The translations under genes and the position numbers were made by a program. This document shows positions 1,692 through 32,720 of a DNA stretch of 64,000 nt, piece by piece; within the stretch, counting starts at the first letter, position 1, and the number at the start of each line of letters is the position of its first letter. The stretch spans positions 5,938-69,937 of the forward strand of contig JBHHWG010000004.1 in NCBI GenBank assembly GCA_046756385.1, written 5' to 3'. The notes under the pieces were generated by a model, which saw only the letters and a list, made by a program, of their open reading frames with translations, did no database searches and was not told the origin of the DNA. Origin of the DNA: Sphingomonadales bacterium. GTDB taxonomy: Bacteria; Pseudomonadota; Alphaproteobacteria; CAZZKF01.

Positions 1692-2497
1692 ATATGGCGG
1701 ACTACAAGGCCGAGCATTTCCTGTGGCGGGTCGACGGCGCGGTCGCCACCATCACCCTCAACCGGCCGGAGCGCAAGAACCCGCTGACGTTCGAATGCTA
1801 TGCGGAACTGCGTGACCTGTTTCGCCAGCTTGGCCATGCGGACGATATTCATGCCGTGGTCATCACTGGCGCGGCGGGTAATTTCTGCGCCGGCGGCGAC
1901 GTGCATGAGATTATCGGTCCTCTGACCGGGATGGATATGAAAGGGCTTCTCCGCTTCACCCGCATGACCGGTGATCTGGTCAAGGCGATGCGCGCCTGCC
2001 CGCAGCCCATCATCGCCGCCGTCGACGGGGTGTGCGTGGGCGCCGGTGCGATTATCGCCATGGCCTCGGACTTGCGCCTGGCGACGCCGCAATCCAGAAC
2101 CGCTTTTCTGTTCAACCGGGTGGGCCTCGCCGGCTGCGACATGGGCGCCTGCGCGATTCTGCCGCGCATCATCGGTCAGGGCCGGGCGTCGGAACTGCTG
2201 CTCACCGGACGCGCAATGAGCGGTGAGGAAGGAGAACGCTGGGGCTTCTTCAACCGTTTGTGCGACGCCGACGACGTTCTGACGGAGGCTCAGGACCTGG
2301 CGGCCCGGATCGCCGCCGGCCCCAGCTTCGCCAACGGCATCACCAAAACCCAGCTCAATCAGGAATGGGCCATGAGCCTTGAAGCCGCGATCGAGGCCGA
2401 GGCTCAGGCCCAGGCGATTTGCATGCGCACCCGGGATTTCGAGCGCGCCTACCATGCATTCGTAAACAAGGAAAAACCAGTTTTCGAGGGCGACTGA
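1688..2497 (+). CDS. Enoyl-CoA hydratase/isomerase (crotonase family)
   Basis: [12 protein letters not shown] and [15 protein letters not shown] motifs. ATGA overlap with the MarR gene. Confidence 0.85.
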
Positions 2498-3684
2498 TGG
2501 CCGATAGAAGCTTTCTCGACTGGCCGTTTTTTGACGATGCGCACCGCGCATTGGCGAAGGAGATCGACCTCTGGGCGGCACGGGAAATCGGGCTGAGTTC
2601 CCACCACAATGCCGACATCGACGGCGCGTGCAAACGATTAGTCTCGAAACTGGGCGAGAGCGGCTGGCTCCGCGCCTGCGTGCCGGCAAGCCATGGCGGC
2701 TTGACCGGGACACTGGATGTGCGCTCCCTGTGCCTGATCCGCGAAACCCTGGCCCGTTATTCGGGCCTCGCCGATTTTTCGTTCGCCATGCAGGGCCTCG
2801 GAAGTGGTCCGATAACGCTTGCCGGAAGCAATGCACTAAAGGACGAATATCTGCCCGATGTAAGGGACGGCAAAAAAATCGCGGCCTTCGCGCTTTCGGA
2901 ACCGAACGCCGGTTCCGACGTGGCGGCGATCGCCACCACGGCCGAAATCGATGGCGAAACCGATGGCGATGATTATGTGCTCAACGGCGAAAAAACCTGG
3001 ACATCGAACGGCGGCATCGCCGATTTCTATTGTGTGTTCGCACGCACCGGCAGGGGGGCGGGGGCTCGGGGCCTCAGCGCTTTCGTGGTCGACGCCGATA
3101 CGCCGGGGCTCGAAATCGTCGAGCGGATCGACGTTATCGCGCCGCACCCGCTGGCCCGGATCAGGTTCACCGGCTGCCGGGCGCCCAGGTCAAGGATGCT
3201 GGGACAGCCGGGACAAGGATTCAGGATCGCCATGACGACCCTGGACATATTCCGCTCGACCGTGGCGGCGGCGGCCTTGGGTTTTGCCCGCCGCGCGCTC
3301 GACGAAGCGCTGGCACGGATTGACGAGCGCGAGGCGTTTGGCCGCAAGCTCGCCGACTTCCAGCTCACCAAGGCCAAGATCGCGGACATGGCGACCGGCG
3401 TGGACGCCAGCGCCCTGCTGGTCTACCGCGCCGCCTGGACCCGCGACCGCAAGGCCGACCGCGTGACCCGCGAGGCCTCAATGGCTAAAATGCATGCCAC
3501 CGAGACCGCCCAACAGGTGATCGACCATGCGGTCCAACTGTTTGGCGGCCAGGGGGTGGTGTCGGGGGTCAAGGTCGAAGAGCTGTACCGCGGGATACGG
3601 GCGCTTCGGATTTACGAAGGAACGACCGAGATCAACAAGCTGGTGATCGCCGATCAGACCATGCGCGGTTTCACCCCCCGCTGA
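2497..3684 (+). CDS. Acyl-CoA dehydrogenase
   Basis: 395 aa. [29 protein letters not shown] and the C-terminal [13 protein letters not shown] motif are typical of ACADs. Confidence 0.85.
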
Positions 3685-3756
3685 GGAGGCGACCCGGACG
3701 AGCCGCGCGGCCCTTGCCAGGTGCAATCCCCACACATTGGAGGAAGCAGTAAAACG

Positions 3757-4188
3757 ATGGGCGTATTTTCCACCGACATACCGATCCGCTTCGCCGACTG
3801 CGACCTGGCTGGCGTCATGTTCTATCCCCGTTTGATCGAACGGATCCAGCAGGTGGTCGAGCGGTGGTTCGACCAGGGCCTGGGGCTCGATTTCCACCAG
3901 GTTCATGTGGTCAATGGCTGGGGCCTGCCCACGGTCGATCTGCACTGCGAATTCGTTCATCCAAGCCGCCTTGGCGACGTGCTGTCATTCACCCTGTGGT
4001 TGGAAAAAATCGGGCGCACCTCGTTCATCGTCCGTATCGAAGCCAGATGCGGCGGCGAAATGCGGGCCAAGGCGCGGCTTGTGATGGTCATGCGCTCGTT
4101 CTATCGGCCTGAAAACACCGAAATTCCGACCGACCTGCGCACCGCGATGGGAAAATTCCTGAACCCACCGGGACCTGAGCAGGCTTGA
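3757..4188 (+). CDS. Hotdog-fold acyl-CoA thioesterase (4HBT/YbgC-like)
   Basis: FADCDLAGVMFYPRLIERIQQVVERWF matches the 4HBT-family active-site region. GGAGGAAG ribosome-binding site before the ATG at 3757. Confidence 0.65.
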   Translation: MGVFSTDIPIRFADCDLAGVMFYPRLIERIQQVVERWFDQGLGLDFHQVHVVNGWGLPTVDLHCEFVHPSRLGDVLSFTLWLEKIGRTSFIVRIEARCGGEMRAKARLVMVMRSFYRPENTEIPTDLRTAMGKFLNPPGPEQA

Positions 4189-4249
4189 GGTCGCGGATTA
4201 TGTTAGGGTGAGACGTTGCCATACGAGACCTGTGTCAAGGGAAGCCGCG

Positions 4250-5791
4250 GTGAACATTTCAGATTGGATTGCAAAGTGGGCCGACTTTACGCCGCGAAAG
4301 ACGGCAATCCGTTTCGAAGGCAAGGAAATCAGCTATGGCGAATTATCCGCGAACATCGCGCGGCTGGCCGCCGGGCTGAAAAACAGGCTGGGCGTGGCCC
4401 CCGGCGACCGGATCGCCCATCTGGGGTATAACAGCCCGGAAATGCTGATTTTGCTCTTCGCCTGCGCGCGACTGGGGGCGATGCTGGCGCCGCTCAACTG
4501 GCGGCTCGCCGCGCCTGAGCACCGATACATTTTACGCCAATCCGGCGCCAGATGCCTGTTCGCAGACCGCTCGTTCCAGGGTCATGTCGCCGCATTGAAT
4601 GAAGACGGCCGGGACATCGCGTTGATTTGTGTCGATGCCGCCGCGCCCGATGCCGGATGGACCGATTTCGCAACCCTGGCCAGGGAGAGCGCGCACGATA
4701 CGCCCGTCAATGTTATCAGCGATAATTCGCCGCTGCTGATCGTTTACACCTCGGGCACGACCGGAAAGCCCAAGGGCGCGGTGCTGACCCAGAACGCATT
4801 ATTGTGGAACGCGATCAACAGCATGCTCGCCCACGATCTGCGGAGCAGCGATCACATTCTGACCACCCTGCCGATGTTTCATGTTGGCGGCCTGAACATT
4901 CTGACCACGCCCGCCTTGCATGCCGGAGCGACGGTGACACTGCATCGCAAATTCGATGCGGCGGCCACATTGCGCGAAATAGCCAAATCCCGGCCAACGC
5001 TTACCGTGATGGTGCCCGCGCAGATGCAGGCCGCCAGCAGTCATCCCGAGTGGGGCGAGACCGACTTGAAGAGCCTGCGAATGTTGACCACCGGCTCCTC
5101 CATCGTGCCCAAACCGGTGATCGCTCCCTGGCATGATCGTGGCATACCCGTGGTTCAGGTTTACGGCTCCACCGAGACCGCGCCGATCGCCATTCATCAA
5201 CGAGCCGACGACGCCATGACCACGGCGGGCTCGACCGGCAAGCCGGCGGTTCATTGCGAGGTCCGGCTCATCGACAAGCAAGGCAACGACGTCGCGACCG
5301 GACAATGCGGCGAAATTCTTGTGCGCGGGCGCAATGTGATGGTCGAATATTGGGGCGATCGGGAAGCCACCGCCGAAGCCTTGCGCGGCGGCTGGCATTA
5401 TACAGGGGACATCGGCTACCGGGACGAAGACGGCAATTATCACGTTGTCGACCGGAAGAAGGACATGATCGTGTCGGGCGGCGAAAACATCTACCCGGCC
5501 GAGCTGGAAGCGGTGCTTTACGAACACCCGGACATTGCCGAAGCGGCTGTCGTCGGGCGCGCCGATCGAAACTGGGGCGAGGTCGCGGTGGCGGTCATCG
5601 GCTTGCGCGCGGGACGCCGGCTCGCCAAGCCGGAAGTCCTGGCCTTGTTCGACGACCGACTGGCGCGGTTCAAGCACCCCAAGGACGTCATTTTCGTGAA
5701 GAAGTTACCCCGAAACGCCATGGGAAAGATCCTCAAGTTCAAGACCCGCCAGATGCTGACAGGACGAGGAAAAGACAAATGCCATTCATGA
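4250..5791 (+). CDS. AMP-dependent acyl-CoA synthetase/ligase
   Basis: AMP-binding motif YTSGTTGKPKG, then GSTE and GWHYTGDIGYRDEDGNYHVVDRKKDMI, and a C-terminal LPRNAMGKILK. The start is uncertain: GTG 4250 or ATG 4208. Confidence 0.8.
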   Translation: MNISDWIAKWADFTPRKTAIRFEGKEISYGELSANIARLAAGLKNRLGVAPGDRIAHLGYNSPEMLILLFACARLGAMLAPLNWRLAAPEHRYILRQSGARCLFADRSFQGHVAALNEDGRDIALICVDAAAPDAGWTDFATLARESAHDTPVNVISDNSPLLIVYTSGTTGKPKGAVLTQNALLWNAINSMLAHDLRSSDHILTTLPMFHVGGLNILTTPALHAGATVTLHRKFDAAATLREIAKSRPTLTVMVPAQMQAASSHPEWGETDLKSLRMLTTGSSIVPKPVIAPWHDRGIPVVQVYGSTETAPIAIHQRADDAMTTAGSTGKPAVHCEVRLIDKQGNDVATGQCGEILVRGRNVMVEYWGDREATAEALRGGWHYTGDIGYRDEDGNYHVVDRKKDMIVSGGENIYPAELEAVLYEHPDIAEAAVVGRADRNWGEVAVAVIGLRAGRRLAKPEVLALFDDRLARFKHPKDVIFVKKLPRNAMGKILKFKTRQMLTGRGKDKCHS

Positions 5792-6336
5792 ATTTCCTGC
5801 CGGAGGATGCAACCCAGCTCCATCTGTTTGAGAAATATCCGGAAAGCTCGAAACTGATTCTCGAATTCACCGAGGTTCTTTTGCGCGGGCCGTCGCCATT
5901 TACGGTGGCCGAGCGGGAGCTTATCGGGGCCTTTACGTCGAATCTGAATGGCTGCCAATTTTGCTTCGGCGTCCACGCTGCCGCCGCCGAGCATTTCGGC
6001 GTCGACCCGGCGCTGCTGGAAAGCCTGCTTGAAGACATCGAAACCGCGGCAATCGACGACAAGCTTAAGCCGATCCTGCGCTATGTCCGCAAGCTTACCC
6101 TCGACCCGACCAGAATGACCCAGGCCGATGCCGACGCGATCCTCGATGCCGGCTGGGACGAAGACGCCTTCCACCACGTGGTGTCGGTCTGTGCGCTGTT
6201 CAATTACTATAATCGCGTCATCAACGGCCACGGCATCAAGGGTTCGCCGGTTTACCTCGAGGAATGCGGCAAGCGACTCGCAAGCTCCGGATATGCCAGC
6301 ATCATGGATATGCTCAAGAACACAATGGACCGATAA
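5779..6336 (+). CDS. Carboxymuconolactone decarboxylase-family (AhpD-like) protein
   Basis: 185 aa. NGCQFCFGVH is the CxxC..H AhpD/CMD-fold motif. Overlaps the end of the ligase gene. Confidence 0.65.
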   Translation: MPFMNFLPEDATQLHLFEKYPESSKLILEFTEVLLRGPSPFTVAERELIGAFTSNLNGCQFCFGVHAAAAEHFGVDPALLESLLEDIETAAIDDKLKPILRYVRKLTLDPTRMTQADADAILDAGWDEDAFHHVVSVCALFNYYNRVINGHGIKGSPVYLEECGKRLASSGYASIMDMLKNTMDR

Positions 6337-6667
6337 CAGGCCATGGAGCACATCTGCGCATTGGCTTTGGACAGGCATTGCGGAAATGTAAATTCGAGTC
6401 GCCGCGCCCGGCGCTGAGAGGGTCGGTTTCACTGCTCAGAGCCGCCCCCAAAAGCGCTGTTTAGAACGGTTATTCGTTACCCTGTAACTCCCTTTGTTTC
6501 TTACCTTTCACGAAACCCCCGTCGAAAAAGCGACAGCCCAGGCGGGCCCGCGCCGCCAGCCGTTCGACGATTGTTTGCTCCTGAATCCTTGCTGACTTAA
6601 AATAGCGAATGGGCAGGGTTGAGATGCTTTTCTTCCCCAGACTGGTTGTCGTTGAAGGAGACCCGCT

Positions 6668-6940
6668 ATGCAGGAAAACACTTCAATCGAATCCGAGCAC
6701 CGGTCGGCATTGCTCCAAGTCGATTGGGATGAAGTGCAAGAACCCGGTTGCTATGTTGAGCAAGGTAGCGGTGACCTCTTCCGCATTCCCAAAGAGGCCC
6801 TGATTTCCGGCGCCTCCCCGTTGATCGTCAAGGAGAGCCGTGGAGCGTCGCGTCTGTTCCAAGTAAGCAAAGACCCCTATGTCACGACCCTGAAGGCGCG
6901 GATCATTTGCGCCCAGCATAACATCGACCCCAACTTCTAA
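6668..6940 (+). CDS. Small 90-aa protein, paralog A; candidate RiPP / QhpC-like precursor
   Basis: AAGGAG ribosome-binding site 8 nt upstream. 90 aa. Tandem paralog of 7070..7342 with about 60% identity. Shared motifs: SIESEH, VDW, PGC, GSGDL.RIPKEAL, KESRGASRLF, C.HNI.PNF. Sits in a local GC dip. Confidence 0.55.
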   Translation: MQENTSIESEHRSALLQVDWDEVQEPGCYVEQGSGDLFRIPKEALISGASPLIVKESRGASRLFQVSKDPYVTTLKARIICAQHNIDPNF

Positions 6941-7069
6941 AGTTCGATCAATCCTCGATCCTGCCCATTTTTGCAGGGTGCCACGGGTGCAACCGAATAA
7001 GTTTTACTCCTTGGGTAGCGGCACTGATACGCGTCGGTTTAGGGTTGTGGCCGCCGAAAGATATCCGCA

Positions 7070-7342
7070 ATGAAGGAGAAAAGTTCGATCGAATCTGAAC
7101 ATTGTACGCCTCTGACCCAAGTTGACTGGCAAGACATACGTAAACCCGGTTGCTCCGTTGAGCTTGGCTCCGGTGACCTCTGCCGCATTCCGAAAGAGGC
7201 CCTTGGCCGTAACCTTTCACCGGTGATCACAAAGGAAAGCCGGGGGGCGTCGCGTCTGTTCCGGGTCAGCGAGGACCCCCATGTTATAACGCTTAAAGTG
7301 CGATTTGTTTGCGCCAGGCACAATATCAAGCCAAATTTCTAG
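7070..7342 (+). CDS. Small 90-aa protein, paralog B; candidate RiPP / QhpC-like precursor
   Basis: Same length and collinear with paralog A. Conserved Trp20, Cys28, Cys80 and a conserved C-terminal HNI(D/K)PNF. Convergent with the protease / ABC / rSAM operon. Confidence 0.55.
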   Translation: MKEKSSIESEHCTPLTQVDWQDIRKPGCSVELGSGDLCRIPKEALGRNLSPVITKESRGASRLFRVSEDPHVITLKVRFVCARHNIKPNF

Positions 7343-7407
7343 AGCGGCCCCCCACATTTCCTGCTGTTGCGCGCCCGGCCCGGCGCAATATTTCCGTTAA
7401 GGTTTGT

Positions 7408-8091
7408 TCAAATCGCGCGTCGTTCCGGCCCGTGATACCTGGCCCTGGAGCGAAGAAAATCCGCCGCCAATATTGACGCGCCGCCGTCGTCCAGATAGGC
7501 CGCCAGTTTCCCTGTAACATGGGCGGTGGCGAAACTGGAACCGCCGACGCGACGATCCCCAACCTCCTTCATGCCGCGTGGGCAGGCGCCGTATTCGGCC
7601 TGACTGGTCGCCAGATGGGAAATCTCGTCAGCCGCGCAGCGGGCATCCCCGCTGACGCTGATCACCCCGTCATAGGCGGAGGGATATATCTGTGTTCCCC
7701 GCGCGGGGCTTGCGGCCACCAGTATGATCCCTTCGCCCATTGCCCGCTGGCAAATCTCGCGCACCAAAACGCGGTCTTCGCGCAGGCCGAAGCTCATATT
7801 AATCATTGCGGCGCCTCGTCGGACCAGCCAGTCGAAGCCCTCCGCCACCAGCCGGGGGGTGGCCACTGGTTTGTCGTCAAATATTCGGGCGTTGAGAAGC
7901 CGGGCCCGCGGCGCGTGTCGCCAGATCACCTGGGCAAGCAAGCTGCCGTGCCGGATGGCGTCGGCCGTGTCCGGCCCCACGACCACCTTGCCCTCAGGGC
8001 CGACCTTAAATTGGCGAGCGGCGGCGACACGCGCCCTTTGGCCGCCATCCACCCCGCTGTCGAGCAGGCCAACCAGGACGCCGCTACTCAC
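7408..8091 (-). CDS. Minimal subtilisin-like serine protease (peptidase S8), QhpE-like
   Basis: 227 aa. The catalytic triad is in the canonical S8 order: GLLDSGVD (Asp), HGS (His), GSSFATAHVTG (Ser). Only about 230 aa, which is the size of leader-peptidase-type S8 enzymes. Confidence 0.75.
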   Translation of the reverse strand: MSSGVLVGLLDSGVDGGQRARVAAARQFKVGPEGKVVVGPDTADAIRHGSLLAQVIWRHAPRARLLNARIFDDKPVATPRLVAEGFDWLVRRGAAMINMSFGLREDRVLVREICQRAMGEGIILVAASPARGTQIYPSAYDGVISVSGDARCAADEISHLATSQAEYGACPRGMKEVGDRRVGGSSFATAHVTGKLAAYLDDGGASILAADFLRSRARYHGPERRAI

Positions 8092-9802
8092 CCGCCGCCC
8101 CCAACGCCGCCGGAGCCCGATCAGGCCACGCGATCAGTTTTCCGTCATAAAGTTCCAGCACCTGATCGGTATCGGCAATGAGTGTCTCACGATGACCGAT
8201 GAGGATGCGGGTCCGATCCGCGAACAGCCGGTCGATTTGATCGATCAATTGCGCTTCCGTTTCCCGATCGATGCCGGTCGTCGCTTCATCGAGGACCAGA
8301 ACCAGTGGATCCTGCAAGATCGCCCGCGCCATCGCCAGGCGCTGACGCTGCCCCCCCGAAAGTTGTGCGCCACGCTCGCCGGCCGAAGTGTCATATCCGT
8401 CCGGCAACGTGCGAATAAACCCGTCGATTCGGGCCCGTGCGGCCGCATCGATAATTTCCGCCCGGGTGGCGCCCGGCCGGGCGTAGCGAATATTGTCCGC
8501 AATGGTGCTCCTGAACAGCACAGTGTCCTGAGCAACCACCGCAATCGCGCGGCGCAAGGCCCCAATGTCGAGCGTCTTAAGATCGATGCCGTCGAGCAGG
8601 ATGCGGCCGACATCAGGATCGTAATGGCGGTGCAGCAGATCCGTCATTGTCGACTTCCCGACGCCCGACCGGCCGACGATCGCGACCTTCGCCGCGCCCG
8701 GTATTTCCAGACTGGCGTGATCGAGAACTGCCCGGTCGCGGCCGGGGCGGAAGAATGTTACGCATTCGAAACGAATGGCGCCTTTTGCCTTGTCCGGCAA
8801 GGATGCCGGGTGCGCCGGCGAACATATCACAGGCCGCTGACACGCCAGTTCCATGACCCGGCTCAGACTGACCCGGGCCCGTTGGCTCGCGACATAGAGA
8901 CCGAGGAAAGTCCGTATCGGCCCCGCCGCCCGTCCCATATAGACCGAAAACGCAATCAAAGTGCCGATCGTTATCCGTTCGTCCGCAACCAGGTAGCCGC
9001 CGGTGACAAAAACCAGCGCGATCGCCAGGGTCATCAGCACCCCGGGCGCCGCGCCGGCCAAATAGTTCGTGATTTGCAGGCGTAGCTGATCGGACAAATA
9101 ATCGCTGTGCAACCCGGCGAGACGCCGCGCCTCGCGCTCCCCGGCGCCAACCGCCTGCACGAATTTCATTGCCCCCAGCGTCTCGACCAGAAATCCGGTG
9201 ATGTCGCCGGCCCGCTCCCGCGCGGCTCGGGTCAACCGCTGGATACGCGGACGCATGGTCCGCAAATAAGCGACCTGGAGCGGTAGCAGGACGAAGGCGA
9301 TCAATGTGAGCAGTGGGCTCATCCACAGCATAACCGCCAGACTGCCGACAAGCGCAAGGACGCCATTGACCACGGCAAGCAGCGAATCGGTCGAGAACCG
9401 TTGAATTTCGGCAATATCGCCATCGAGCCGGGTCATGATATCGCCGGTACCGCGCGTGGCGTGGAAATCGGGACTAAGGCTCGTCAATTGACGGTAAACC
9501 TGCTCGCGCATGGCGAATAGAATCCGGCCCGAAAGTGCGGTGTAGAGCCAACGGTTCAGACCGCCGGCCGCCGCCGAAAGCACCGCCGCCGCGACCAGAA
9601 TTCCGCACAGCCACGACACCACGGCCATGTCGCGCTCGATCAAGCCGTCGTCAATCAGCAGCTTGGTAAGATACGGCTGCACCAGCGCCAAACCGGTGGC
9701 GACAATCGACAGCGACAGAACCTGAACCAGGGCGCGACCTTGCGGCCGGACAAAACCGAGCGCCCAGCGGATTGCCGCCTGTTGATCGGCGCCCGGCCTC
9801 AA
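8084..9802 (-). CDS. Fused ABC transporter permease/ATPase (type I exporter), QhpF-like
   Basis: 572 aa. N-terminal 6-TM region. Walker A GRSGVGKST, ABC signature LSGGQRQR, Walker B LVLDEAT. Confidence 0.85.
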   Translation of the reverse strand: MRPGADQQAAIRWALGFVRPQGRALVQVLSLSIVATGLALVQPYLTKLLIDDGLIERDMAVVSWLCGILVAAAVLSAAAGGLNRWLYTALSGRILFAMREQVYRQLTSLSPDFHATRGTGDIMTRLDGDIAEIQRFSTDSLLAVVNGVLALVGSLAVMLWMSPLLTLIAFVLLPLQVAYLRTMRPRIQRLTRAARERAGDITGFLVETLGAMKFVQAVGAGEREARRLAGLHSDYLSDQLRLQITNYLAGAAPGVLMTLAIALVFVTGGYLVADERITIGTLIAFSVYMGRAAGPIRTFLGLYVASQRARVSLSRVMELACQRPVICSPAHPASLPDKAKGAIRFECVTFFRPGRDRAVLDHASLEIPGAAKVAIVGRSGVGKSTMTDLLHRHYDPDVGRILLDGIDLKTLDIGALRRAIAVVAQDTVLFRSTIADNIRYARPGATRAEIIDAAARARIDGFIRTLPDGYDTSAGERGAQLSGGQRQRLAMARAILQDPLVLVLDEATTGIDRETEAQLIDQIDRLFADRTRILIGHRETLIADTDQVLELYDGKLIAWPDRAPAALGAAGE

Positions 9803-9808
9803 GGCGCC

Positions 9809-11287
9809 CTACCCGCCCATGTCCATCGATGCGCCGCTCGGTCCGCGGGGCCCAATATGCTCCGCAAGGAAATCCGGATTTCGCGCCAATATCGCGTCAT
9901 AACATTCAATGGCGGCGTCGACCCAGTCGCGCATCAGATCGCAATAAAGGTATGTCGGACTCTTCGGGTCGTGATAGTTCAGATATGATTCATGATAACA
10001 GCCCCCGGCGCACAGGTTGCGTATCCAGCAGGTCCGGCACGAACTATCATCGAGATTGGCCGCATCTTCCAGAAACCGCGCCAGCTCGTCCTTCCTGATG
10101 CCCTCACGAACTGTCCCAAAGGTCTGGAAATCCGAGCCCGCAAAACGGTGGCACAAGGCCAGACTGCCCTTGGGCTCAACCCCCAGCAGCCCCACACCGG
10201 CGCCGCAGGGCAAGGTCTTGCGATTGCCGTGGTGGAGGTCGGCCAGAAGCTTTTGCAGATTGGAAAATCCGATATTGCGACCGGCAATCGCCGCGTCCCG
10301 GTAGCTTCGGCCCAATGCTTTCATATTTTCGAAAAACTCGGCCAGTTCATCCCCGGTCAATTTGAACCGGCTGGAGCCGTCGGATGTGACCGGCGCGAAG
10401 CCCACCTCGGTAAAACCCAGCTCATGGAACAGATGGTGGTGGATCGCGGCAACGTCGATTGCGCCCGCGGTAACGGTCACCCGCGCGCCGACCGGGCCCG
10501 CCTTGTAACGACCCAGCAGCATGCGCGTTTTTTCGGCTACCAGATCGTAGCTTCCGGCGCCGCGCCTGGTTTTTCGGTGACGATCGTGTACCGCTTTGGG
10601 ACCGTCGATGGACAGTGAAATGGCGAAATTATGCCCGCCCAGGAAATCGACTGATTGCTCGGTCAGCAGGGTCGCATTGGTGGTCAGCGAAAAGTTGGGG
10701 CATTTGCCCAATGCCTGGCAACGGCCCTCGGCATAGGCCACAACGGCTTTAATCAGCGGCATGTTGCTCAACGGCTCGCCGCCAAAGAAAACGACATTTA
10801 CCCGCTCCCGGTCCCCGCTTTCTCCAAGCAGCAAATCAATGCTTCGGGCGGCGGTTTCGAAATCCATGCGGATCGCGCCCGACGGCCGGGTCAGGTCCTC
10901 TTTGTAACAATAGTCGCAGGCGAGATTGCAACCGGTTGTAACATTGATGACCATGGTGCTGAGCGGAAAATTCCTGATCGCGACGGGTTGCCGTCTGGTG
11001 GCCTTCGCCTGTCCTGAGACAAGGATTCCAAGCTCCTTGAACTCACGGATCGTTTGCGCGATTTCAGCCGCCGGGAAGCGGCCGTCAAAATGCCGTTCAA
11101 TATCTGGCGCGTGGATTTCGCCGGTCGACTTGAAAAGGTCGTAGACGGCGACGCCGGCGTCATCAAGCTCGAACATGGCTGTCGTCGGCACATGAAAAAC
11201 GATGCGCCGACCGTTGGTCGCGACATCGTGGACATCCCGCCGAACCATTCGGAGACCGGCCATCGGATCCTCAAACAACGAATACAA
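9809..11287 (-). CDS. Radical SAM / SPASM-domain peptide-modifying enzyme with N-terminal PqqD-like RRE (QhpD-like)
   Basis: CNLACDYC is the CX3CX2C radical-SAM motif. The C-terminal Cys-rich region (CRTCWIRNLCAGGCYHESY) is the SPASM auxiliary cluster. An ~100-aa N-terminal extension (VYDLFKSTGEIHAPDIERHFDGRFPAAEIAQTIREFKELGILV) resembles a PqqD-type RiPP recognition element. Confidence 0.85.
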   Translation of the reverse strand: MYSLFEDPMAGLRMVRRDVHDVATNGRRIVFHVPTTAMFELDDAGVAVYDLFKSTGEIHAPDIERHFDGRFPAAEIAQTIREFKELGILVSGQAKATRRQPVAIRNFPLSTMVINVTTGCNLACDYCYKEDLTRPSGAIRMDFETAARSIDLLLGESGDRERVNVVFFGGEPLSNMPLIKAVVAYAEGRCQALGKCPNFSLTTNATLLTEQSVDFLGGHNFAISLSIDGPKAVHDRHRKTRRGAGSYDLVAEKTRMLLGRYKAGPVGARVTVTAGAIDVAAIHHHLFHELGFTEVGFAPVTSDGSSRFKLTGDELAEFFENMKALGRSYRDAAIAGRNIGFSNLQKLLADLHHGNRKTLPCGAGVGLLGVEPKGSLALCHRFAGSDFQTFGTVREGIRKDELARFLEDAANLDDSSCRTCWIRNLCAGGCYHESYLNYHDPKSPTYLYCDLMRDWVDAAIECYDAILARNPDFLAEHIGPRGPSGASMDMGG

Positions 11288-11332
11288 CCACCGTCAAGTG
11301 TACCAAACACGCTGGCTGCCGGAAAGCGCCCC

Positions 11333-11495
11333 TAGAGCACTTTCAGCTCTTATGGAATCATTTGATGGGCGGGAGCGTCTCGTCCGGCAAGGCGCGGCGC
11401 GCCGCGCGATACGGTGTATCGGGCAAGCGTCGCAACGCCGCCACAACGCAAAATCAGCCCGGTCAAATGCCCCCATAAAAGCTGAAAGTGCTCTA
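11333..11495. repeat. Perfect 16-bp inverted repeat (TAGAGCACTTTCAGCT ... AGCTGAAAGTGCTCTA) flanking a 131-bp spacer, in the divergent rSAM / ABC-importer intergenic region
   Basis: Arms at 11333-11348 and 11480-11495 are exact reverse complements. Partial matches extend to about 21 bp. Confidence 0.6.
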
Positions 11496-11594
11496 TTATC
11501 GACGAAAACAGTGCCGCCAACCGCCGCTGTTGCCTAAGTTACAGGATATGAGCTATCACGGCGTCGATCATTGCTTCAGTCAGAGACCAAGGGC

Positions 11595-12299
11595 ATGAGC
11601 GACCTAGCCGCCGCATTCGCCGCCGCGTTCGATTTGATCGTCTCGCTCGATGCCGAGCTGATGGAGATCGTCGGACGTTCGCTCGCGATCAGCCTTTCGG
11701 CTGTGGCCATCGCCGCCGTGATCGGCCTGCCGCTGGGAGCGGTCCTCGCGGTGATCCGATTTCCGGGCCGGCAGTTCGCAATCATTGTGTTGAACGCCCT
11801 GATGGGCATTCCCCCTGTCGTGGTCGGCGTGGTGATCTACCTGCTATTGTCGCGCTCCGGACCGCTCGGCACATTCGGCCTGCTGTTCTCGCCGTGGGCC
11901 ATGATTATCGCCCAGACCTGCCTGATCACGCCAATCGTCGCCGCACTCAGCCGCCAGATCGTCGATGACCTTTTCGCCGAATACCGGGAATTGCTGAAAT
12001 CGCTTGGCGTCGGGCCCGTCCGGGCGATCCGCACGCTGTTGTGGGACGGCCGGCTGAGCCTGCTGACGGCCGTTCTTGCCGGCTTTGGACGCGCCGCTGG
12101 CGAAGTGGGCGCGGTGCTGATCGTGGGCGGCAATATCGACCATGTCACCCGGGTCATGACCACGGCAATCGCCCTTGAGACCAGCAAGGGACAACTGGCT
12201 CTCGCGGTCGGTCTGGGCATGATCGTCCTGCTGTTATCGATCGGCGTCAACGCGGCGGCCATGCTGACGGGTCAAGCCGCAAAGCGATTGCGGAGCTAA
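11595..12299 (+). CDS. ABC transporter permease, tungstate/molybdate-type (TupB/ModB-like)
   Basis: About 235 aa with 5-6 TM segments. The EAA-like loop (LFAEYRELLKSLGVGPVRAIRTLLWDGRL) and small size are typical of oxoanion ABC permeases. Confidence 0.65.
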   Translation: MSDLAAAFAAAFDLIVSLDAELMEIVGRSLAISLSAVAIAAVIGLPLGAVLAVIRFPGRQFAIIVLNALMGIPPVVVGVVIYLLLSRSGPLGTFGLLFSPWAMIIAQTCLITPIVAALSRQIVDDLFAEYRELLKSLGVGPVRAIRTLLWDGRLSLLTAVLAGFGRAAGEVGAVLIVGGNIDHVTRVMTTAIALETSKGQLALAVGLGMIVLLLSIGVNAAAMLTGQAAKRLRS

Positions 12300-13051
12300 T
12301 GGAAGCAACGGTTACGAATACGGCCCCGCCGGTGGAGAACACCGGCATTCTGCCCCTGGCGCTCGACCGGGTCAGTTTCAGCGCCGGTGGCCAGGCCCTG
12401 ATCGACGAGATTTCGCTCCAGCTTGACGCCGGGCCAATGACCTTGCTGCTGGGGCCCAATGGCGCCGGCAAGAGCTTGCTGCTGCGATTGTGCCATGGCC
12501 TGGTCAACCCCACGTCCGGCTCCATCCAGTGGCGCGGGCCGGGCGGAGCACAATCGAACAGGGCTCAGGCCATGGTTTTTCAGCGGCCGGTGATGCTGCG
12601 TCGTTCCGCGCGCGGCAACCTGATCTATGCCCTGGCGGTGTCCGGCTGGTCGCGACGTGACCGCGGGGAACGGGTTGAGCGCATGCTGGAACGGGCGGGA
12701 CTTGAGGATATTGCCGATCGCTCGGCCTGGGTGCTGTCAGGCGGCGAGCAACAGAGGCTGGCGCTGGCGCGCGCCTGGATAATGGAACCGCAGGTGCTTT
12801 TCCTTGATGAGCCGACGGCCAATCTGGACCCGGCGGCGACCCGGGCGGTGGAGGGCATGATACGGGCCATTCATGAAGCAGGCACCAAGATCGTCATGAC
12901 CACCCACGACCTTGGCCAAGCGCGCCGTCTGGCCGATGAAGTTATGTTCATTTATCAGGGCGCCATCACCGAACGGGCCGCGGCGAACACGTTTTTCGCG
13001 GGACCGACGACCAGCGAGGCAGCCGCATATGTCGAGGGGCGCTTACCATGA
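12299..13051 (+). CDS. ABC transporter ATP-binding protein
   Basis: Walker A GPNGAGKS, signature LSGGEQQRLALARA, Walker B LFLDEPTANLD. ATGG overlap with the permease gene. Confidence 0.8.
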   Translation: MEATVTNTAPPVENTGILPLALDRVSFSAGGQALIDEISLQLDAGPMTLLLGPNGAGKSLLLRLCHGLVNPTSGSIQWRGPGGAQSNRAQAMVFQRPVMLRRSARGNLIYALAVSGWSRRDRGERVERMLERAGLEDIADRSAWVLSGGEQQRLALARAWIMEPQVLFLDEPTANLDPAATRAVEGMIRAIHEAGTKIVMTTHDLGQARRLADEVMFIYQGAITERAAANTFFAGPTTSEAAAYVEGRLP

Positions 13052-13911
13052 TCCGATTGCTTGGAAGGCGGGCGTGGGGCGCCGCATTGACCGTGTCCCT
13101 CCTGACCTTCACCGTCGCAAACGAGACCCACGGCGCCGGTCGCCACATCACTGTGGCTTCGACGACATCGACCGAAAATTCAGGCTTGTTCGACCACGTC
13201 CTGCCCCTATTCGAAACCCGAACCGGTATCTCGGTTCGGGTGATCGCAAAGGGCACCGGTCAGGCTATTGAAATAGCGCGGCGCGGCGATGCTGACGTTT
13301 TGCTCGTCCATCACCGACCGTCGGAAGAGAAATTCGTCGCCCAGGGCTTCGGACTGAAGCGCCGGGAAGTGATGTACAACGATTTCGTAATTGTGGGTCC
13401 CCGCGACGATCCCGCGGACATCGGCGGCGGCCATGATGCGCTAACAGCGTTGCGGCTGATCGCGGCCAGCAGCGCGCCGTTTCTGTCACGCGGTGACGAA
13501 AGCGGCACCCATCGGCGTGAACTGGCGCTGTGGCGCGAAGCCGCGCTTGATGTCGATGGAGCGGGCTTTTCCTGGTATCGGGAGGCCGGCGCGGGCATGG
13601 GCGCCGCCCTCAACATCGCCGCTGAGGCGGAAGCCTACATCCTGGCCGACCGGGGGACCTGGCTGGGTTTCCACAACAAACGAAACCTGGAAATTCTGGT
13701 TGAGGGGGATAAGCGGCTGATCAACATTTACAGCGTTATCCTGGTCAATCCGGTCAGGCATCCCCACGTCAAGGCGAAGGACGGTCGGACATTTATCGAG
13801 TGGCTGCTCTCCCCCCCGGGACAGGCGGCAATCGCCGGCTTTCGCATCGCCGGCGAACAGCCCTTTTTTCCTCTTGGAACGACGGGCGCTTACGGAACCA
13901 GGCCGCGGTAA
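13048..13911 (+). CDS. Periplasmic substrate-binding protein, tungstate-binding TupA-like
   Basis: Signal peptide. The TTSTENSGL motif is characteristic of TupA/WtpA-type oxoanion-binding proteins. Gene coupling to the permease and ATPase. Confidence 0.6.
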   Translation: MIRLLGRRAWGAALTVSLLTFTVANETHGAGRHITVASTTSTENSGLFDHVLPLFETRTGISVRVIAKGTGQAIEIARRGDADVLLVHHRPSEEKFVAQGFGLKRREVMYNDFVIVGPRDDPADIGGGHDALTALRLIAASSAPFLSRGDESGTHRRELALWREAALDVDGAGFSWYREAGAGMGAALNIAAEAEAYILADRGTWLGFHNKRNLEILVEGDKRLINIYSVILVNPVRHPHVKAKDGRTFIEWLLSPPGQAAIAGFRIAGEQPFFPLGTTGAYGTRPR

Positions 13912-15221
13912 CGCAGCCAGTCGCGGGCTACGGCGGCCTCTCCGAAGGTTACCTTGAACCGACGCACCGCGAGTTCGAGCGAACTGCCCTTGTTTTCAAG
14001 AAATTCAAGCAAGGAAACCACAGGGACGCCCGCCACTCGCCATATTCCGCGCGGGTGATCGGGCATCACCAGGACGTCGGCCGCCTTGATGACGTGCCCG
14101 TCGACCACCGGCCGGCGGGCAATTACAATTTCATCCGGCGGCCAATGAACGAACATGGGTTGGCGTTTCAGCGGCTGTCGCCGGCCGCGCCAGAAGGGCC
14201 GCTCCGGCCAGCGTGTCTCGCCGGCATAAAACTCGCGCCCGACATCGATCGCGTGGGCAAAGCGGGTTCCCGCCCGGTAGTGGTAAAAATCAATCGCGAG
14301 ATCGGCACGCTCCGGGTGTCGGATCAGTGTGATGATCACCGGCACCGCCGCCAGCGCGCAACCGAGAGCCTCGAACACGCCGTGGCCGGACAGCGGATCA
14401 AGGGCGATCGCGGCATCACCGACACGGATCACGCCACGCTCAATCGTCGGTTCGCAAAGCACCGGCCCCGCCGCCCGGGCGATGACCGGACCCACCGGCC
14501 GGGCCCCGGTGAGCCAGACCGCGGCTTCGGGAATGCGGGCGATCAGATCGCCGTAAAACCGATTCAATTTCTCTCGGGACGGCATTTGCCCCCGGCCACC
14601 GGCTACAAAAACCTGCAACACTGCCTGGCCTTCGTGGTCGGCGGCAAACCAGGCCCACCCGTCATCAAACGACGCGGTGGCGCTGAACGAGCCCATGTCT
14701 GAGGCAATTTGCCACTCCCGCACCAGCGCGGCCGTCTCTGGGGCCGCCACTCGCCGCCCCTTCGAACGAGGCGCCTGCCGGCCGCGTGCCTCAACAATGA
14801 CACCGGCTTCGAGTTCCATCTTGTCCCACCGCGACGGCCGAAGTGTGACCGTGGCGCCATGTTCGCCGGTTCTAATGGCGCCCACGGCCGCGTCAATCAC
14901 CGTCGCGTCGGACAGGCGGAGGGTTTTGAGGAGCACGGCGTCAAACCGGGCCCGGTTGACGATCCGCTCCCGGTTGACGGTGCTGGTCTCGCAGCGCCAC
15001 GAAGCCCGGCGTTCAATCCGGGGCCCCAATGTTGCGAGCGCCGCACCCAGACCCACCGACTTCAACACCGCTTCGGTACGCGCCGGCAAGCCCTCAATCG
15101 CGAGTACGCGTCGCGGCCTCGTGACCAGCGCAACGCGATGGCCGAGCCGCGATAGCCCCAGCGCGGTCGCGCACCCCGCCGGCCCGCCGCCCAGAACGAC
15201 AATGTCGAAACGCTCCACCAT
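13890..15221 (-). CDS. FAD-dependent monooxygenase (flavin halogenase/hydroxylase fold), QhpG-like
   Basis: N-terminal dinucleotide-binding motif IVVLGGGPAGCATA. GDAAIALDPLSGHGV is the GDAAxxxDPxxGxG motif of group-A flavoprotein monooxygenases. An extra ~100-aa C-terminal domain is present. Confidence 0.8.
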   Translation of the reverse strand: MVERFDIVVLGGGPAGCATALGLSRLGHRVALVTRPRRVLAIEGLPARTEAVLKSVGLGAALATLGPRIERRASWRCETSTVNRERIVNRARFDAVLLKTLRLSDATVIDAAVGAIRTGEHGATVTLRPSRWDKMELEAGVIVEARGRQAPRSKGRRVAAPETAALVREWQIASDMGSFSATASFDDGWAWFAADHEGQAVLQVFVAGGRGQMPSREKLNRFYGDLIARIPEAAVWLTGARPVGPVIARAAGPVLCEPTIERGVIRVGDAAIALDPLSGHGVFEALGCALAAVPVIITLIRHPERADLAIDFYHYRAGTRFAHAIDVGREFYAGETRWPERPFWRGRRQPLKRQPMFVHWPPDEIVIARRPVVDGHVIKAADVLVMPDHPRGIWRVAGVPVVSLLEFLENKGSSLELAVRRFKVTFGEAAVARDWLRYRGLVP

Positions 15222-15418: not shown

Positions 15419-16438
15419 TTGTGTTACTCAAAACGAAATTCCAGTAGTCAAACGATAGCCTTTGAGCATGGTGGTGGCTTGTTTAGACAACTTGCGGTCG
15501 GTCTGATCGCCCTATGTTGGCTCGCCTCCGGGGCCGGCCCTGTTGAGGCGGCGGAGCAGCCCAATGCGAGGGCCCTGAGAGCCCATGCGCTTATTATCGG
15601 GGAACTAAAACTCCTGCACCAGGCGGACCTTGTATCGTTCGACCCCGCGTCGGTGCGCGTGCCTCACGACGACCGCCAAATTCGCCATGTGATGCAGCGT
15701 GCCCGGAAGTTAATGGGGCGGGTCCAGAAGCTTCGATTCATGAATGGTCTGCCGCGCAACCGCGCTGCCCCGATAGAGGCCAAAATTATTGGCACTGAGG
15801 ACCTCGCGGCCATGATCGAAGCCATCCTGCGCGAAGTCCGGGAGTTGCGCCCGATTTATCGGATCAGCAATGTCAAACCGCCGCGGGATTTCGCCGCCGA
15901 CGGCACGCTGAAAGATATCATGCAAGGGCTGGCGCTGGCCGACGCCATGGTCGAGGCTTTGGGCGTTCCGGCTCCCGTACCCAACGACGTCTATCGGACC
16001 GCACTGTCGATCAATGCCGCGCTCGATAGGCTTTTGTCGGCCCGTGGGCTGAAACCGGTCGAGGTCAAAGCGACGGAACGCAACAAGGTGCCGACCGATG
16101 TCTACGCACGTGTCCATGAGTTTCTCGAACTCCTGAAACGCACGGTGGAGGAACAACCGGATTTCAACATCCCGGGCGGCATCACATTGCCGGGACGCAA
16201 GACGGAGCCCATCAAGCCAAAGGACGTCCTCGACCTGCTTGACGACATGCTGGCCGACATCCTGGCCTTAAAGGCGGCGATAGGAATCCGGGCGCCGGCC
16301 GAGTTCACCCGGGAACAGGTTGGAAAAACACCAAGCGACGTTTTCGACCAGATCAGCAGAGCCCTGTTCAACCTGAACCGGCTGCGCCTGCAAACCCGAC
16401 GGCAAACGAAATTCGGAGGCACTCGGAATGCCGAGTGA
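15419..16438 (+). CDS. Hypothetical secreted/periplasmic protein, probably coupled to the sensor kinase
   Basis: Hydrophobic signal-like segment LAVGLIALCWLASGAGPVEAAEQ. The start is uncertain (an internal TTG at 15479 is possible). The stop overlaps the kinase start. Confidence 0.45.
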   Translation: MCYSKRNSSSQTIAFEHGGGLFRQLAVGLIALCWLASGAGPVEAAEQPNARALRAHALIIGELKLLHQADLVSFDPASVRVPHDDRQIRHVMQRARKLMGRVQKLRFMNGLPRNRAAPIEAKIIGTEDLAAMIEAILREVRELRPIYRISNVKPPRDFAADGTLKDIMQGLALADAMVEALGVPAPVPNDVYRTALSINAALDRLLSARGLKPVEVKATERNKVPTDVYARVHEFLELLKRTVEEQPDFNIPGGITLPGRKTEPIKPKDVLDLLDDMLADILALKAAIGIRAPAEFTREQVGKTPSDVFDQISRALFNLNRLRLQTRRQTKFGGTRNAE

Positions 16439-18155
16439 CGCCAGGGGAATGACATGCGGAAACGGTCCTGCCGTTGTCGGCGGGCGCACCAAGGGGGCCG
16501 GCAAATTTTCAGGCGTCGGCGCCAAAGTGTTTTTGCTGGCGGTCGTCCCGGTTCTCACGATTGCCGGCTTGAGCGCCCAGATCGCGCTCAACAATATCAG
16601 TTACACGAAAACAGCGGTCGAAAGCCGCAACGTTGAGGAACGTGAATCCGCCAGACTGAACCGGAACGCCCTGGCTGTACAGGAACAGATGCTTGAGCTG
16701 ACACAGGCGATCAGCAAGGTTGTCAGGCGGCATCAGGAAAACCTCCTTCTACCCAGCCGTGGAGCTTCTGGCGACGTTCTGGCTGGGCGCCGCGTCGCCC
16801 GGCAATGCATCAAGGATTTTAACGATACAGTTCAAAACCTGGCCGCTCTGATCTCCGATTTCGAACCGTTGGACATTGGCGCGGACGGCACCGAACTGGC
16901 CCAGGAGCTGGAGCAACGCATGTCCTATCTGGCCCGCTGGTCCAATAATCTGCCTCGGCTGTTCAAACTGTTCGAGCAGGCGAACGACCGCACGACGACG
17001 GCGCTGCAGTCCGGCGATTCCGCCAGCGCCATGGCCAACTACATTTACGAGGAAACGTCCCACCTTGCCGTCCTGGATAACCGCGTGAACAAGATGTCCG
17101 CGGTATTGGGAGACATGGTCGAAAGTTTATCGACGCTTCAAGGCTTTGAACGGGAGGCCTCGGCGGCCCGAATCCTTGAAGAAATTGCATCATCCAACCT
17201 TCGCATTTTGACCCTGATCGCAACAACGACCTTTATATTGTTGGGCGTGGCCGTCGCCTACTCCCATTTCGGCCTGACAAAACCACTGGTTCGGCTGATT
17301 GCCTCCATGAAGGAACTTGGCAACGGCAATAAGAAGATAGAGATTCCGACCGGGGCCGGGGAGATCGGCGAAATGGCCCATACATTGGCGGTGTTCCGGG
17401 ATAATGCCGTTGCCAAGGAAGCCGCCGAGGAACAGTTGATTCAAGCGCAAAAAATGGAGTCGATCGGCCAGCTCACGGGCGGCGTCGCGCATGATTTCAA
17501 CAACCTGCTGTGTGTCGTCCTGGGCAATCTGGAACTGCTTCAGGAAAAACTGGAACATGACGAGCATCTGCGGAAATTGGTTCAGCGCGCCATCGGCGCC
17601 GCCGACAAGGGCGCGGTGCTGGTGCAGCGATTACTGGCATTCTCGCGCAAGCAAACCCTGATGCCCAAGGAAACGGACATTGGCGACATGGTCGAGGGCA
17701 TGTCCGGTTTACTGCGCCGGACGCTCGGCGAATGGGTCGAGATCAGGACTGAAACGGAAGACGAACCGTGCATCGCGCGGATCGATTCGGCGCAACTGGA
17801 AAATGTTCTGCTGAATCTTGCGCTGAACGCCCGCGACGCCATGTCCAGCAGGGGGACGTTGACGATTGCGGCCAGGAATACATACCTGGACGACACCCGT
17901 CTGACCGATCACGAGGGCCTGGAACCGGGGCATTTCGTATTGGTTTCAGCAACCGATACTGGCGAAGGCATACCGGCGGAACATCTTGAGAGGGTCTTCG
18001 AGCCGTTCTTCACCACCAAGGAAGTGGGCAAGGGAAGCGGCCTCGGCCTGTCGATGATTTATGGTTTCGTCAAGCAGTCAGGCGGCCATATCGAAATCGA
18101 AAGCCACGTCGGGACTGGCACTTCAATCCGAATTTATCTGCCGCGAGTTCTTTAA
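16428..18155 (+). CDS. Sensor histidine kinase (periplasmic sensor, HAMP, HisKA, HATPase_c)
   Basis: Two TM segments flank a ~230-aa periplasmic region. H-box [21 protein letters not shown]1 and G2 boxes near the C-terminus ([11 protein letters not shown]). No receiver domain. Confidence 0.85.
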
Positions 18156-27729: not shown

Positions 27730-28128
27730 ATGGAGTTCTTTGCATCAACCGAGACCGGCGACCATGACGTAAGCGCCCATGCGCGCAAAATTGGTGAGGA
27801 TGTGCTGGTCGCGATCTGGGGCGGCGACAAGCCTCATATCGGCGCCGTGGCGGCTGCCCAACCGCGCCCCAGTCTTGACGACCGAACCAGAACCAGCGCC
27901 TCAACATCCGTGATCTGCTTTGTCGGCCACAAAGAAGACGATCTGGCAAAGCATGCGGCGCAGACGCTCGCGTCGGCGTTGAAGGTGCGGGTCGTTGTCA
28001 CCGCCGGCATCCATTGGGACAACATCACGCCGGACGGAATCAAATCGGTTCGCTGCAACTGCAAGTCCGTAATCGCAAAGGTTGCCGATCTCCTGTCTGG
28101 CGCCCCGGAACGTCCGGAAACGGCCTGA
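27730..28128 (+). CDS. Hypothetical protein (132 aa)
   Basis: Intact ORF with good codon usage between the RdhA-like and MCP genes. No recognised motif. Confidence 0.3.
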
Positions 28129-28312
28129 CCGACCCCCTTCGAATTCACGCCCCAGCCCCCTGTTTTTCACTACCGACCATCACATTTGTTTACTAGTCCT
28201 TTACCACCCAGCCAATAGGCTCACAACAATGGCAGGAGCAAGCACCGCCCTGATTCCAGCATCTCTTGTCGATATTGCCGATTTTTCTGACGTGAAGCAG
28301 AGGAGTATTTCC

Positions 28313-29644
28313 ATGGCAAAGTTCGAGCCCGATGCACAGGGCCGGTTGGCATTTCTGGCCATCAATCAAAAGACGTTTGAAATTCTTGGCAAATTATGGC
28401 CAAGCATCGAACCCAGGATCATCCATATTGTGGGCGGTTTCTTCGACCATTTGACGTCGGTGCCTCACTTGCGCAAGGCGTTAAAGGGGGTTGATTTCGA
28501 AAAATTGAAGCAGCGTCAGGTCGAACATTGGCAACAACTTTTCACGCAGGGAATTGATGACGCCTTCATCAAATTCACGACGGATGTCGGCGCCGAGTAT
28601 CACAAACTAGGGTTCGAGCCGCGCTGGTTCCTGGGAAGCTACGCGGTTGAATTCCGTGGCTTCCAGGCGGTCGCGAACAGGACTTTCAGGAACGCCCCCA
28701 AGGAGTTGGCCGCCGCAACCACCGCTATTAACAAGATCCATGTTCTGGTAACCGAGGTCCTGGTCTCATCTTATTACGCAGCCTCCCGCCAGGCGGCGCG
28801 GGCTGAGCTCGAAAAACACGCCAGGGCTTTTGAAACCGGCGTCCTGGCGATGGTCGATTCGGTTGCGGCCGCAACCAGCCAGGTGCGTGATACCACCCGG
28901 AACATGCTCGTTTCCGCAACCGAGGCCAGCGACCTGAGCAGCTCGGTCAAAGAGGCATCCAATCGGGCGTCGGAGAATGTCCAGGCCGTGGCCTCCGCGG
29001 CCGAGGAATTGGCGGCTTCAGTGTCCGAGGTCAGCCGGCAGGTGTTGCAGGCGGCTCAGGCCACCGACGACGCGGCGACAGAAGCCGACGGATCCACCGA
29101 AACAATCAGCAGCCTGATGGAGGCCTCTGAACGAATCGGCGACGTTGTAAAGCTGATCTCCGACATCGCCTCGCAAACCAACCTGTTGTCCCTCAACGCT
29201 ACAATCGAGGCGGCGCGGGCCGGCGATGCGGGCCGCGGCTTCGCCGTTGTGGCCTCAGAGGTCAAGACACTCGCCGGGCAAACCGCCAAGGCGACCGGCG
29301 ATATCGCCGCTCAGATCGGCGCCATTCAGCAGGCCACCAAGCGCGTCGTCGCCGCGAATGACAAGATCACCGGCTCGATCGGCAATGTAAGGGATGTCTC
29401 GGCCGCGATCGCTTCAGCGATCGAGCAGCAGGGAGCCACCGCCGCCGAGATCAGCCGTAACATCAACAATGCGGCAAACGGCACCGAGGAAGTTTCCGAT
29501 GGCACAAACAACGTCGACGGCGCATCGCGGCGCACGGGCGACGCGGCCCGGGAGGTCAGCACCGCCGCCGAAGACATCGCCGGCAAGGTGGCGACATTGA
29601 ACACCCAGGTTCAGGATTTCCTGATCGCGGTGCGTAGCCACTGA
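28313..29644 (+). CDS. Globin-coupled sensor methyl-accepting chemotaxis protein (protoglobin-MCP, HemAT-like), copy 1
   Basis: AGGAGT ribosome-binding site. An ~170-aa N-terminal protoglobin-type sensor ([21 protein letters not shown]...[26 protein letters not shown]...). MCP signalling domain with the highly conserved region [35 protein letters not shown]. No TM segments, so soluble. Confidence 0.85.
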
Positions 29645-32402: not shown

Positions 32403-32720
32403 GCTTCACTCTTTCGGGCTTTACGATCGCGGGCGCCAGACAAGGAGGGCACCGAAAGCGGCAACCGTCCCCAAGCCGACCAACCGCTTAAACTATCGAA
32501 TCCTGCTTGGCGAATCTGACGCCAATATTTGACTCCATATGTACCATACGGTACGGTACAGTCTAACATGCAACAGAGCTGGTGTACAGAACCATGACCT
32601 AAAGGTTCCGAACCGCCGGAATTCTGGGATTGATCAGCTAGTGGTCCGGGCGGATATCCGGGAACCAAATGTCTTTGTCGGACCACTAGCCCGACAAAGA
32701 GATGAATGGGAGCGCGCCAC

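Follow-up and report, generated by a model that had tools for sequence, protein, structure and literature searches.

Layout and identity of the maturation genes

Contig JBHHWG010000004.1, which is 71,841 nt long in full and belongs to a metagenome-assembled genome (MAG) labelled Sphingomonadales bacterium, was analysed over a stretch of 64,000 nt, hereafter the window. This stretch carries four genes, qhpG, qhpD, qhpF and qhpE, of the set that matures QhpC, the gamma subunit in quinohemoprotein amine dehydrogenase (QHNDH), and it carries them without the structural genes of the enzyme. Their positions are as follows:

13890..15221, minus strand: qhpG, predicted FAD-dependent peptidyl-tryptophan dihydroxylase, 443 aa, monocistronic
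9809..11287, minus strand: qhpD, thioether synthase with RRE, radical SAM and SPASM domains, open reading frame (ORF) of 492 aa, first in the D-F-E operon
8084..9802, minus strand: qhpF, ATP-binding cassette (ABC) exporter with fused transmembrane and nucleotide-binding domains, 572 aa
7408..8091, minus strand: qhpE, predicted minimal subtilisin-like leader peptidase, 227 aa

The QhpD ORF scores 663.5 bits against TIGR03906 (cut-off 453), with residues 17-481 placed on model positions 1-465 of 467. The runner-up NCBIfam models, those for PapB (267 bits, cut-off 340) and for the SCIFF maturase (234 bits, cut-off 425), both stay under their cut-offs, and the closest entry in the PDB is CteB (5WGG, 182 bits). 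The protein carries the motifs CNLACDYC and CRTCWIRNLCAGGC, and its radical-SAM and SPASM Cys motifs are all present. At NCBI it is listed as MFQ5533399.1, with 484 aa and a start at the ATG at 11263, and P0121 is 100% identical to it over the same 484 aa; this ATG is likely the true start of qhpD. QhpE scores 235.6 bits against NF049966 (cut-off 165), residues 7-225 covering positions 2-219 of the 219 in the model. QhpG reaches 435.4 bits against NF049967 (cut-off 240) over its full length, contains VGDAAIALDPLSGHG and can be aligned from one end to the other with PDB entry 7CTQ (212.8 bits), while the NCBIfam models for LodB and GoxB give only 77 and 68 bits, respectively (cut-offs 400). In QhpF, the Pfam domains ABC_membrane and ABC_tran are fused. 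Its orthology rests on phmmer, where the QhpF of the canonical locus L006 matches it at 601 bits and the next ABC protein of the window at only 48 bits, and on its place in the operon between qhpD and qhpE, no QhpF model being among the NCBIfam matches shown. By these scores, QhpD, QhpE and QhpG are equivalogs and QhpF is an ortholog of the known maturation proteins, an assignment that goes beyond merely "qhp-like". A first-pass annotation of the same DNA had already proposed QhpD/E/F/G-type enzymes, a minus-strand operon of a radical SAM enzyme, an exporter and an S8 protease, and a flavin monooxygenase at 13890..15221; all of this is confirmed, ORF coordinates included, with the operon in the order D-F-E.

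The stop codon of qhpD and the start of qhpF are separated by 6 nt and qhpE overlaps the end of qhpF by 8 nt, so that D-F-E reads as a single operon. Over positions 2125-12910, the window is 99.99% identical to L088, a Logan assembly made independently, which shows that the junctions in this part are no assembly artefact. A megablast search of PLSDB gave no plasmid match for the window, and no riboswitch or other RNA was found between positions 5500 and 16500.

Absence of the structural genes from the window

The canonical qhp operon, known from Paracoccus denitrificans and Pseudomonas putida, has the order qhpADCBEFGR (PMC7876137). In nearly all the QhpD loci fetched for this work, qhpA lies directly upstream of qhpD and qhpC directly downstream. 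The window was searched for these genes with profile hidden Markov models of QhpA, QhpB and QhpC, built from about 66-76 canonical loci and run with all heuristic filters off (--max) on a stop-to-stop translation in six frames. Over the 64 kb, the QhpA and QhpB profiles found nothing better than E=1, and no plausible ORF contains a CxxCH haem-binding motif; both results agree with the earlier statement that QhpA and QhpB are missing from the window. QhpC can now be added to that list. Its profile was made from trimmed seeds, since in part of the seeds the ORF continued into qhpD in a different frame, and its best match in the window has E=0.36. The conservation of QhpC is extreme (consensus ...DPGWEVD...CQPMEADLYGC.DPCWWPAQV...), and for this reason a normal copy in the window could not have been missed. 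The same profiles found none of the three genes in the 21 kb of CAZZKF010000017.1, a contig of an alphaproteobacterial MAG (hereafter L003) with an equivalent locus.

Recurrence, phylogeny and gene order

The loci around relatives of QhpD were compared in 80 genome contigs (the best 80) and 80 metagenome contigs, with longest-ORF gene calls. In L003, the order is qhpG, tupA/C/B, a group of regulators, qhpD, qhpF, qhpE, an acyl-CoA synthetase gene and a thioesterase gene; order and orientation are as in the window, and the proteins are 43-78% identical to those of the window. Two further contigs show parts of the same arrangement. In L086, D-F-E is followed by the acyl-CoA synthetase gene, and in L087, a tupB whose product is 85% identical to that of the window diverges from qhpD, which is followed by qhpF; their QhpDs are, respectively, 63% and 64% identical to the window protein. 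With the contig of the window there are thus four members, three of them on partial contigs. A scan of metagenomes for further members found none above 57% identity.

A neighbour-joining tree of 201 QhpDs, calculated from corrected p-distances and rooted at the midpoint, places the proteins of the window, L003, L086 and L087 in an exclusive clade, within which identity to the window QhpD is about 62-64%. This clade is nested five nodes deep, and its sister is a clade of 16 tips that includes P0130, from a canonical locus. The next-closest QhpDs, namely P0125, P0127 and P0130, are 58-61% identical and belong to canonical A-D-C-B loci; for the clade as a whole, identity to the nearest canonical QhpDs is 57-61%. 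The nested position within canonical QhpDs means that the unlinking from the structural genes is derived and secondary. Four independent contigs and an exclusive QhpD clade bear out that the arrangement exists and has been maintained in evolution.

The slot between qhpG and qhpD is filled, on the opposite strand, by genes for a TupBCA-like oxyanion (tungstate-type) ABC importer:

11571-12299, plus strand: tupB (NF041773, 158.7 bits, under the equivalog cut-off)
12299-13051, plus strand: tupC, TupC-like
13048-13911, plus strand: tupA (NF041772, 218.5 bits, under the equivalog cut-off)

The 3' end of tupA overlaps the convergent 3' end of qhpG by 22 bp. The three genes are syntenic in L003, where their products are 59-78% identical to those of the window. 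A census of gene orders returned many canonical variants, among them ACBDFEG (four loci) and GACBDFE (L063). The order of the window and of L003, G-[tupABC]-D-F-E, corresponds to GACBDFE with A-C-B replaced: if a single A-C-B block is taken out of GACBDFE, precisely the order of the window results, so one event is enough, and the position of TupABC in the A-C-B slot of G-A-C-B-D-F-E indicates that the structural block was removed secondarily. On the tree and the gene orders combined, the linkage to qhpA/C/B was lost once, in the ancestor of this small clade. Of the loci compared, just three have tupA in the vicinity of qhp genes, namely the window, L003 and the canonical locus L042; the link between Tup and qhp may be functional, for example through the supply of tungsten to an aldehyde oxidoreductase, or it may be merely inherited.

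In L003, positions 6362-9827, between tupB and qhpD, encode a LuxR-type response regulator, a hybrid histidine kinase and a FIST-domain protein, and these inserted regulators may replace the AraC-type QhpR.

Dispersed qhp genes were also met in a different part of the tree, in four Emcibacter-like loci. L040 has the order D-779aa-G-F-E-(LuxR-like)-qhpR, with a qhpR homolog scoring 315 bits, and in L090, E-F-G diverges from D. L046 and L099 hold a lone qhpD whose product is 86-89% identical to canonical QhpDs. None of the four has qhpA, qhpB or qhpC nearby. Large membrane proteins of 686-779 aa adjoin qhpD in L040, L046 and L099. It is known that qhp genes vary in arrangement, order and strand (PMC7876137), and these four loci agree with that report in showing that dispersal of qhp genes is recurrent. 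Two other contigs considered as further orphans, L132 and L135, were rejected, being B-D rearrangements.

Integrity of the enzymes and apparent fit to the substrate

Columns conserved in at least 95% of the loci with an adjacent qhpC were taken as near-invariant, and the clade members were scored as far as they are present in each alignment. The numbers of such columns kept are:

QhpD: 128-136 of 138 in the clade, 128 in the window
QhpE: 16-17 of 17 in the clade, 16 in the window
QhpG: 36-37 of 37 in the clade, 37 in the window
QhpF: 43-45 of 47 in the clade, 43 in the window

All ORFs of the clade are full length, despite a QhpD identity of about 62-64%. Mutagenesis has identified five QhpG residues needed for activity or for QhpC binding, that is, Glu42, Arg47, Arg70, Trp183 and Arg314 (PMC7876137). 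According to the alignment with 7CTQ, the window protein keeps the first four and has His in place of Arg314; Trp181 and Arg307 are kept as well, as are the pocket residues Trp74, Leu268 and Phe322. In QhpD, the ratio of identity in the RRE to identity in the core is 0.52-0.62, against 0.48 +/- 0.08 in canonical pairs, and being near canonical it indicates that the leader-binding region is not unusually diverged. The divergence between the window and L003 across QhpD, QhpE, QhpF and QhpG falls within the canonical distribution when conditioned on the identity of E, F or G. As far as these comparisons can tell, the leader-binding domain is not retargeted and the enzymes are without sign of a changed substrate; the four genes appear to be under selection for function and to remain adapted to a substrate like QhpC.

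Candidate precursors near the operon

Two tandem genes for small paralogous proteins lie beside the operon and converge with it:

6668-6940, plus strand: first 90-aa paralog, MFQ5533396.1 (ACE5EM_01045)
7070-7342, plus strand: second 90-aa paralog, 67% identical to the first

To judge by the accession numbers, only the first copy seems to be annotated at NCBI. The pair had been noticed in the first-pass annotation, which took the two proteins for precursors; the pair itself stands, while that role does not. The proteins match no Pfam or NCBIfam model and belong to a family of 90-95 aa with at least 169 cluster representatives in Alphaproteobacteria, Gammaproteobacteria and Acidobacteriota, whose members are 60-80% identical and share the core GSGDLYRIPKEAL...KESRGASRL...CAQHNI.PNF, with one conserved Cys and one invariant Trp. 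A profile of this family found no member in the other QhpD loci compared, L003 and L086 included, apart from the Logan copy of the window. In Chelatococcus and Steroidobacteraceae, the homologous gene occurs singly and isolated, surrounded by unrelated genes, and the vicinity holds neither radical SAM nor qhp genes. The fold predicted by AlphaFold2 with confidence is a small domain of the beta/alpha type (pLDDT 80.6, pTM 0.68), for which Foldseek returned no PDB match. As QhpC-like precursors the two paralogs were thus rejected: they are non-syntenic and widespread outside qhp loci, and have one conserved Cys and a predicted folded domain.

A scan for Cys-rich precursors, covering mostly intergenic small ORFs with at least three Cys, gave a single ORF beside the maturation genes, at 11294-11476 on the minus strand, directly upstream of qhpD. 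It would encode 60 aa with three Cys and two Trp. Its GC contents at the three codon positions are 0.59/0.67/0.56, against about 0.65/0.48/0.72 in real genes, and neither L003 nor L087 has a conserved counterpart; it was rejected as non-coding and unconserved. No precursor of any kind was detectable next to the maturation genes.

Other genes of the window

Divergent from qhpG, positions 15419-18155 on the plus strand encode a protein of 339 aa that matches no family and whose hydrophobic N-terminus resembles a signal peptide. It overlaps the start of a CckA/VirA-like histidine kinase, and this pair is not present in L003. Two features are unrelated to the qhp genes, namely a protoglobin-coupled methyl-accepting chemotaxis protein (28082-29644, plus strand) and a UbiX/UbiD-type prenyl-flavin decarboxylase pair (31153-31728, minus strand, and 32706-34238, plus strand). 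From 54500 to 64000, a Mu-like prophage or transposable-phage region reaches the right end of the window, with the following genes:

55783-57927: MuA-type transposase
57931-58653: AAA/TniB-like MuB
61272-62042: GemA

Interpretation

From gene content and conservation, the locus is an intact, selectively maintained set for maturation of the QHNDH gamma subunit, composed of qhpG and the operon qhpD-qhpF-qhpE. The reading favoured here, to which we give roughly an even chance, is that of a split qhp system, in which the enzymes still process a subunit of the QhpC type whose gene is located elsewhere in the genome. By analogy with the characterised systems, this substrate would be supplied in trans and the enzymes would act on it in the usual way. 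QhpD would bind the leader and form thioethers from Cys to Asp or Glu, QhpG would dihydroxylate the Trp that is the quinone precursor inside a QhpC-D-G complex, QhpE would take off the leader and QhpF would export the cross-linked peptide to the periplasm. Because cross-linking, Trp hydroxylation, removal of the leader and export are all kept and no retargeting is apparent, the substrate is most likely still of the QhpC type.

Several observations weigh against this view. No qhpA, qhpB or qhpC was found for this genome in a search that covered the 64-kb window, and action in trans would be unusual, given that qhpC adjoins qhpD in 153 of 170 other QhpD loci. The AraC-type regulator is missing too: a phmmer query with the QhpR of L006 matches 81 loci, and neither the window nor L003 is among them. 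In addition, near-invariant positions are changed 10 times in the QhpD of the window, for example by R->G264 and H->Q345, and at most five times in canonical proteins; the root-to-tip distance of the window QhpD, 0.41 against 0.279 +/- 0.041, is the longest of the 201. Two of the 10 changes are clade-wide, namely N->T117, beside the CxxxCxxC radical-SAM motif, and A->V/L436. A faster evolution of QhpD throughout the clade was considered and rejected, as it is seen when conditioning on D identity and is gone when conditioning on the identity of E, F or G; the long branch is the window's own only.

The earlier inference was of a stand-alone ribosomally synthesised and post-translationally modified peptide (RiPP). 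In a modified form of it, QhpD, QhpG, QhpE and QhpF would mature an unlinked precursor other than QhpC into an exported, thioether-linked and Trp-hydroxylated peptide with no dehydrogenase partner. This gains some weight from the lack of A, B, C and qhpR in the 64 kb of the window and in the 21 kb of L003, from the survival of four intact genes in a separate clade whose members are deeply diverged, from the clade-wide substitutions near the radical-SAM motif and the acceleration of the window QhpD, and from a regulation that has seemingly been replaced, as suggested by the LuxR-type regulator, histidine kinase and FIST protein upstream of qhpD in L003. Nevertheless, RiPP precursors normally adjoin their maturase, and no clade member has a candidate in cis: the D-F junction is 6 nt, the region upstream of qhpD is unconserved and its sole Cys-containing ORF is non-coding by its GC profile, and the 90-aa proteins are excluded. 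The divergence of the RRE and the QhpC-contact residues of QhpG also look canonical. With no precursor nearby and no change of substrate apparent, a split system explains the data at least as well, and a stand-alone RiPP is considered unlikely here. The same doubt applies to the pathway it would imply for the clade, that is, a dehydrogenase-independent one ending in a free exported peptide with thioether cross-links and a hydroxylated, possibly quinone-forming Trp, made from an unlinked precursor that is unrecognisable as QhpC; such a pathway seems rather improbable. A full canonical qhp operon with D/E/F/G genes of its own could also exist elsewhere in the genome, the locus being then a paralogous remnant or spare set. 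Lone and partial sets do occur in the Emcibacter-like group (L040, L046, L090 and L099), with QhpDs 76-89% identical to canonical ones in related MAGs. However, a redundant copy should decay, yet several diverged members have all four genes intact; a QhpD merely 57-61% identical to its nearest canonical relatives is no recent duplicate; and among the best 80 genome loci there is one contig per genome, which is a weak argument. We regard this possibility as quite unlikely. Still more so would be a decaying relic, whose structural genes are gone and whose maturation genes are non-functional leftovers. The longest of the 201 QhpD branches and the 10 near-invariant changes, R->G264 and H->Q345 among them, are what such a relic might show, but there is no frameshift or truncation, the NCBIfam models for D, E and G match end to end, all Fe-S Cys motifs are there, QhpG and QhpE keep 37 of 37 and 16 of 17 invariant columns, respectively, and the translational coupling of D-F-E persists. 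Without selection, four intact genes in L003 at 43-62% identity would be unexpected. A spare set and a relic are both less likely than a split system or a stand-alone peptide; even members at a mere 43-62% identity have these genes intact.

In the papers searched, there is no account of qhpDEFG without qhpABC. If the structural genes lie elsewhere, as the split-system interpretation holds, the locus would offer a clear example, found in nature, of qhp maturation in trans, regulated apart from the subunits. This would bear on the single-turnover model of one enzyme per substrate, which has been tied to the co-expression of enzyme and substrate from one operon (PMC7876137). If they are absent, the machinery for a protein-derived cofactor would be re-usable for a free modified peptide, and a new RiPP-like class would unite cross-links of the ranthipeptide kind and Trp dihydroxylation. 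In both cases, these four contigs form a defined test set.

Comparison with known systems

The closest known system is the canonical qhp operon. Shared with it are the QhpD, QhpE, QhpF and QhpG orthologs, with catalytic and QhpC-contact residues mostly kept, and the D-F-E order, which is found in the variants ACBDFEG and GACBDFE. In contrast, qhpA, qhpB, qhpC and the AraC-type qhpR are lacking from the 64 kb, TupABC stands in the slot of the structural genes and the QhpDs form their own clade.

Ranthipeptide and SCIFF clusters, with maturases of the PapB and CteB/ScfB types, are alike in enzyme superfamily, in non-alpha thioether chemistry and in having an ABC exporter and a protease alongside the maturase. 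They differ in that the window maturase falls below the PapB and SCIFF cut-offs, with scores far below its own as QhpD, and in that the window has no adjacent Cys-rich precursor and has a QhpG-type Trp dihydroxylase, which those clusters lack. Finally, in the LodA/LodB and GoxA/GoxB systems for cysteine tryptophylquinone, a flavoprotein also helps to form the tryptophylquinone, and QhpG is distantly related to LodB and GoxB. A radical SAM enzyme, a protease and an exporter have no part in those systems, whereas the flavoprotein of the window is a QhpG equivalog by its NCBIfam score.

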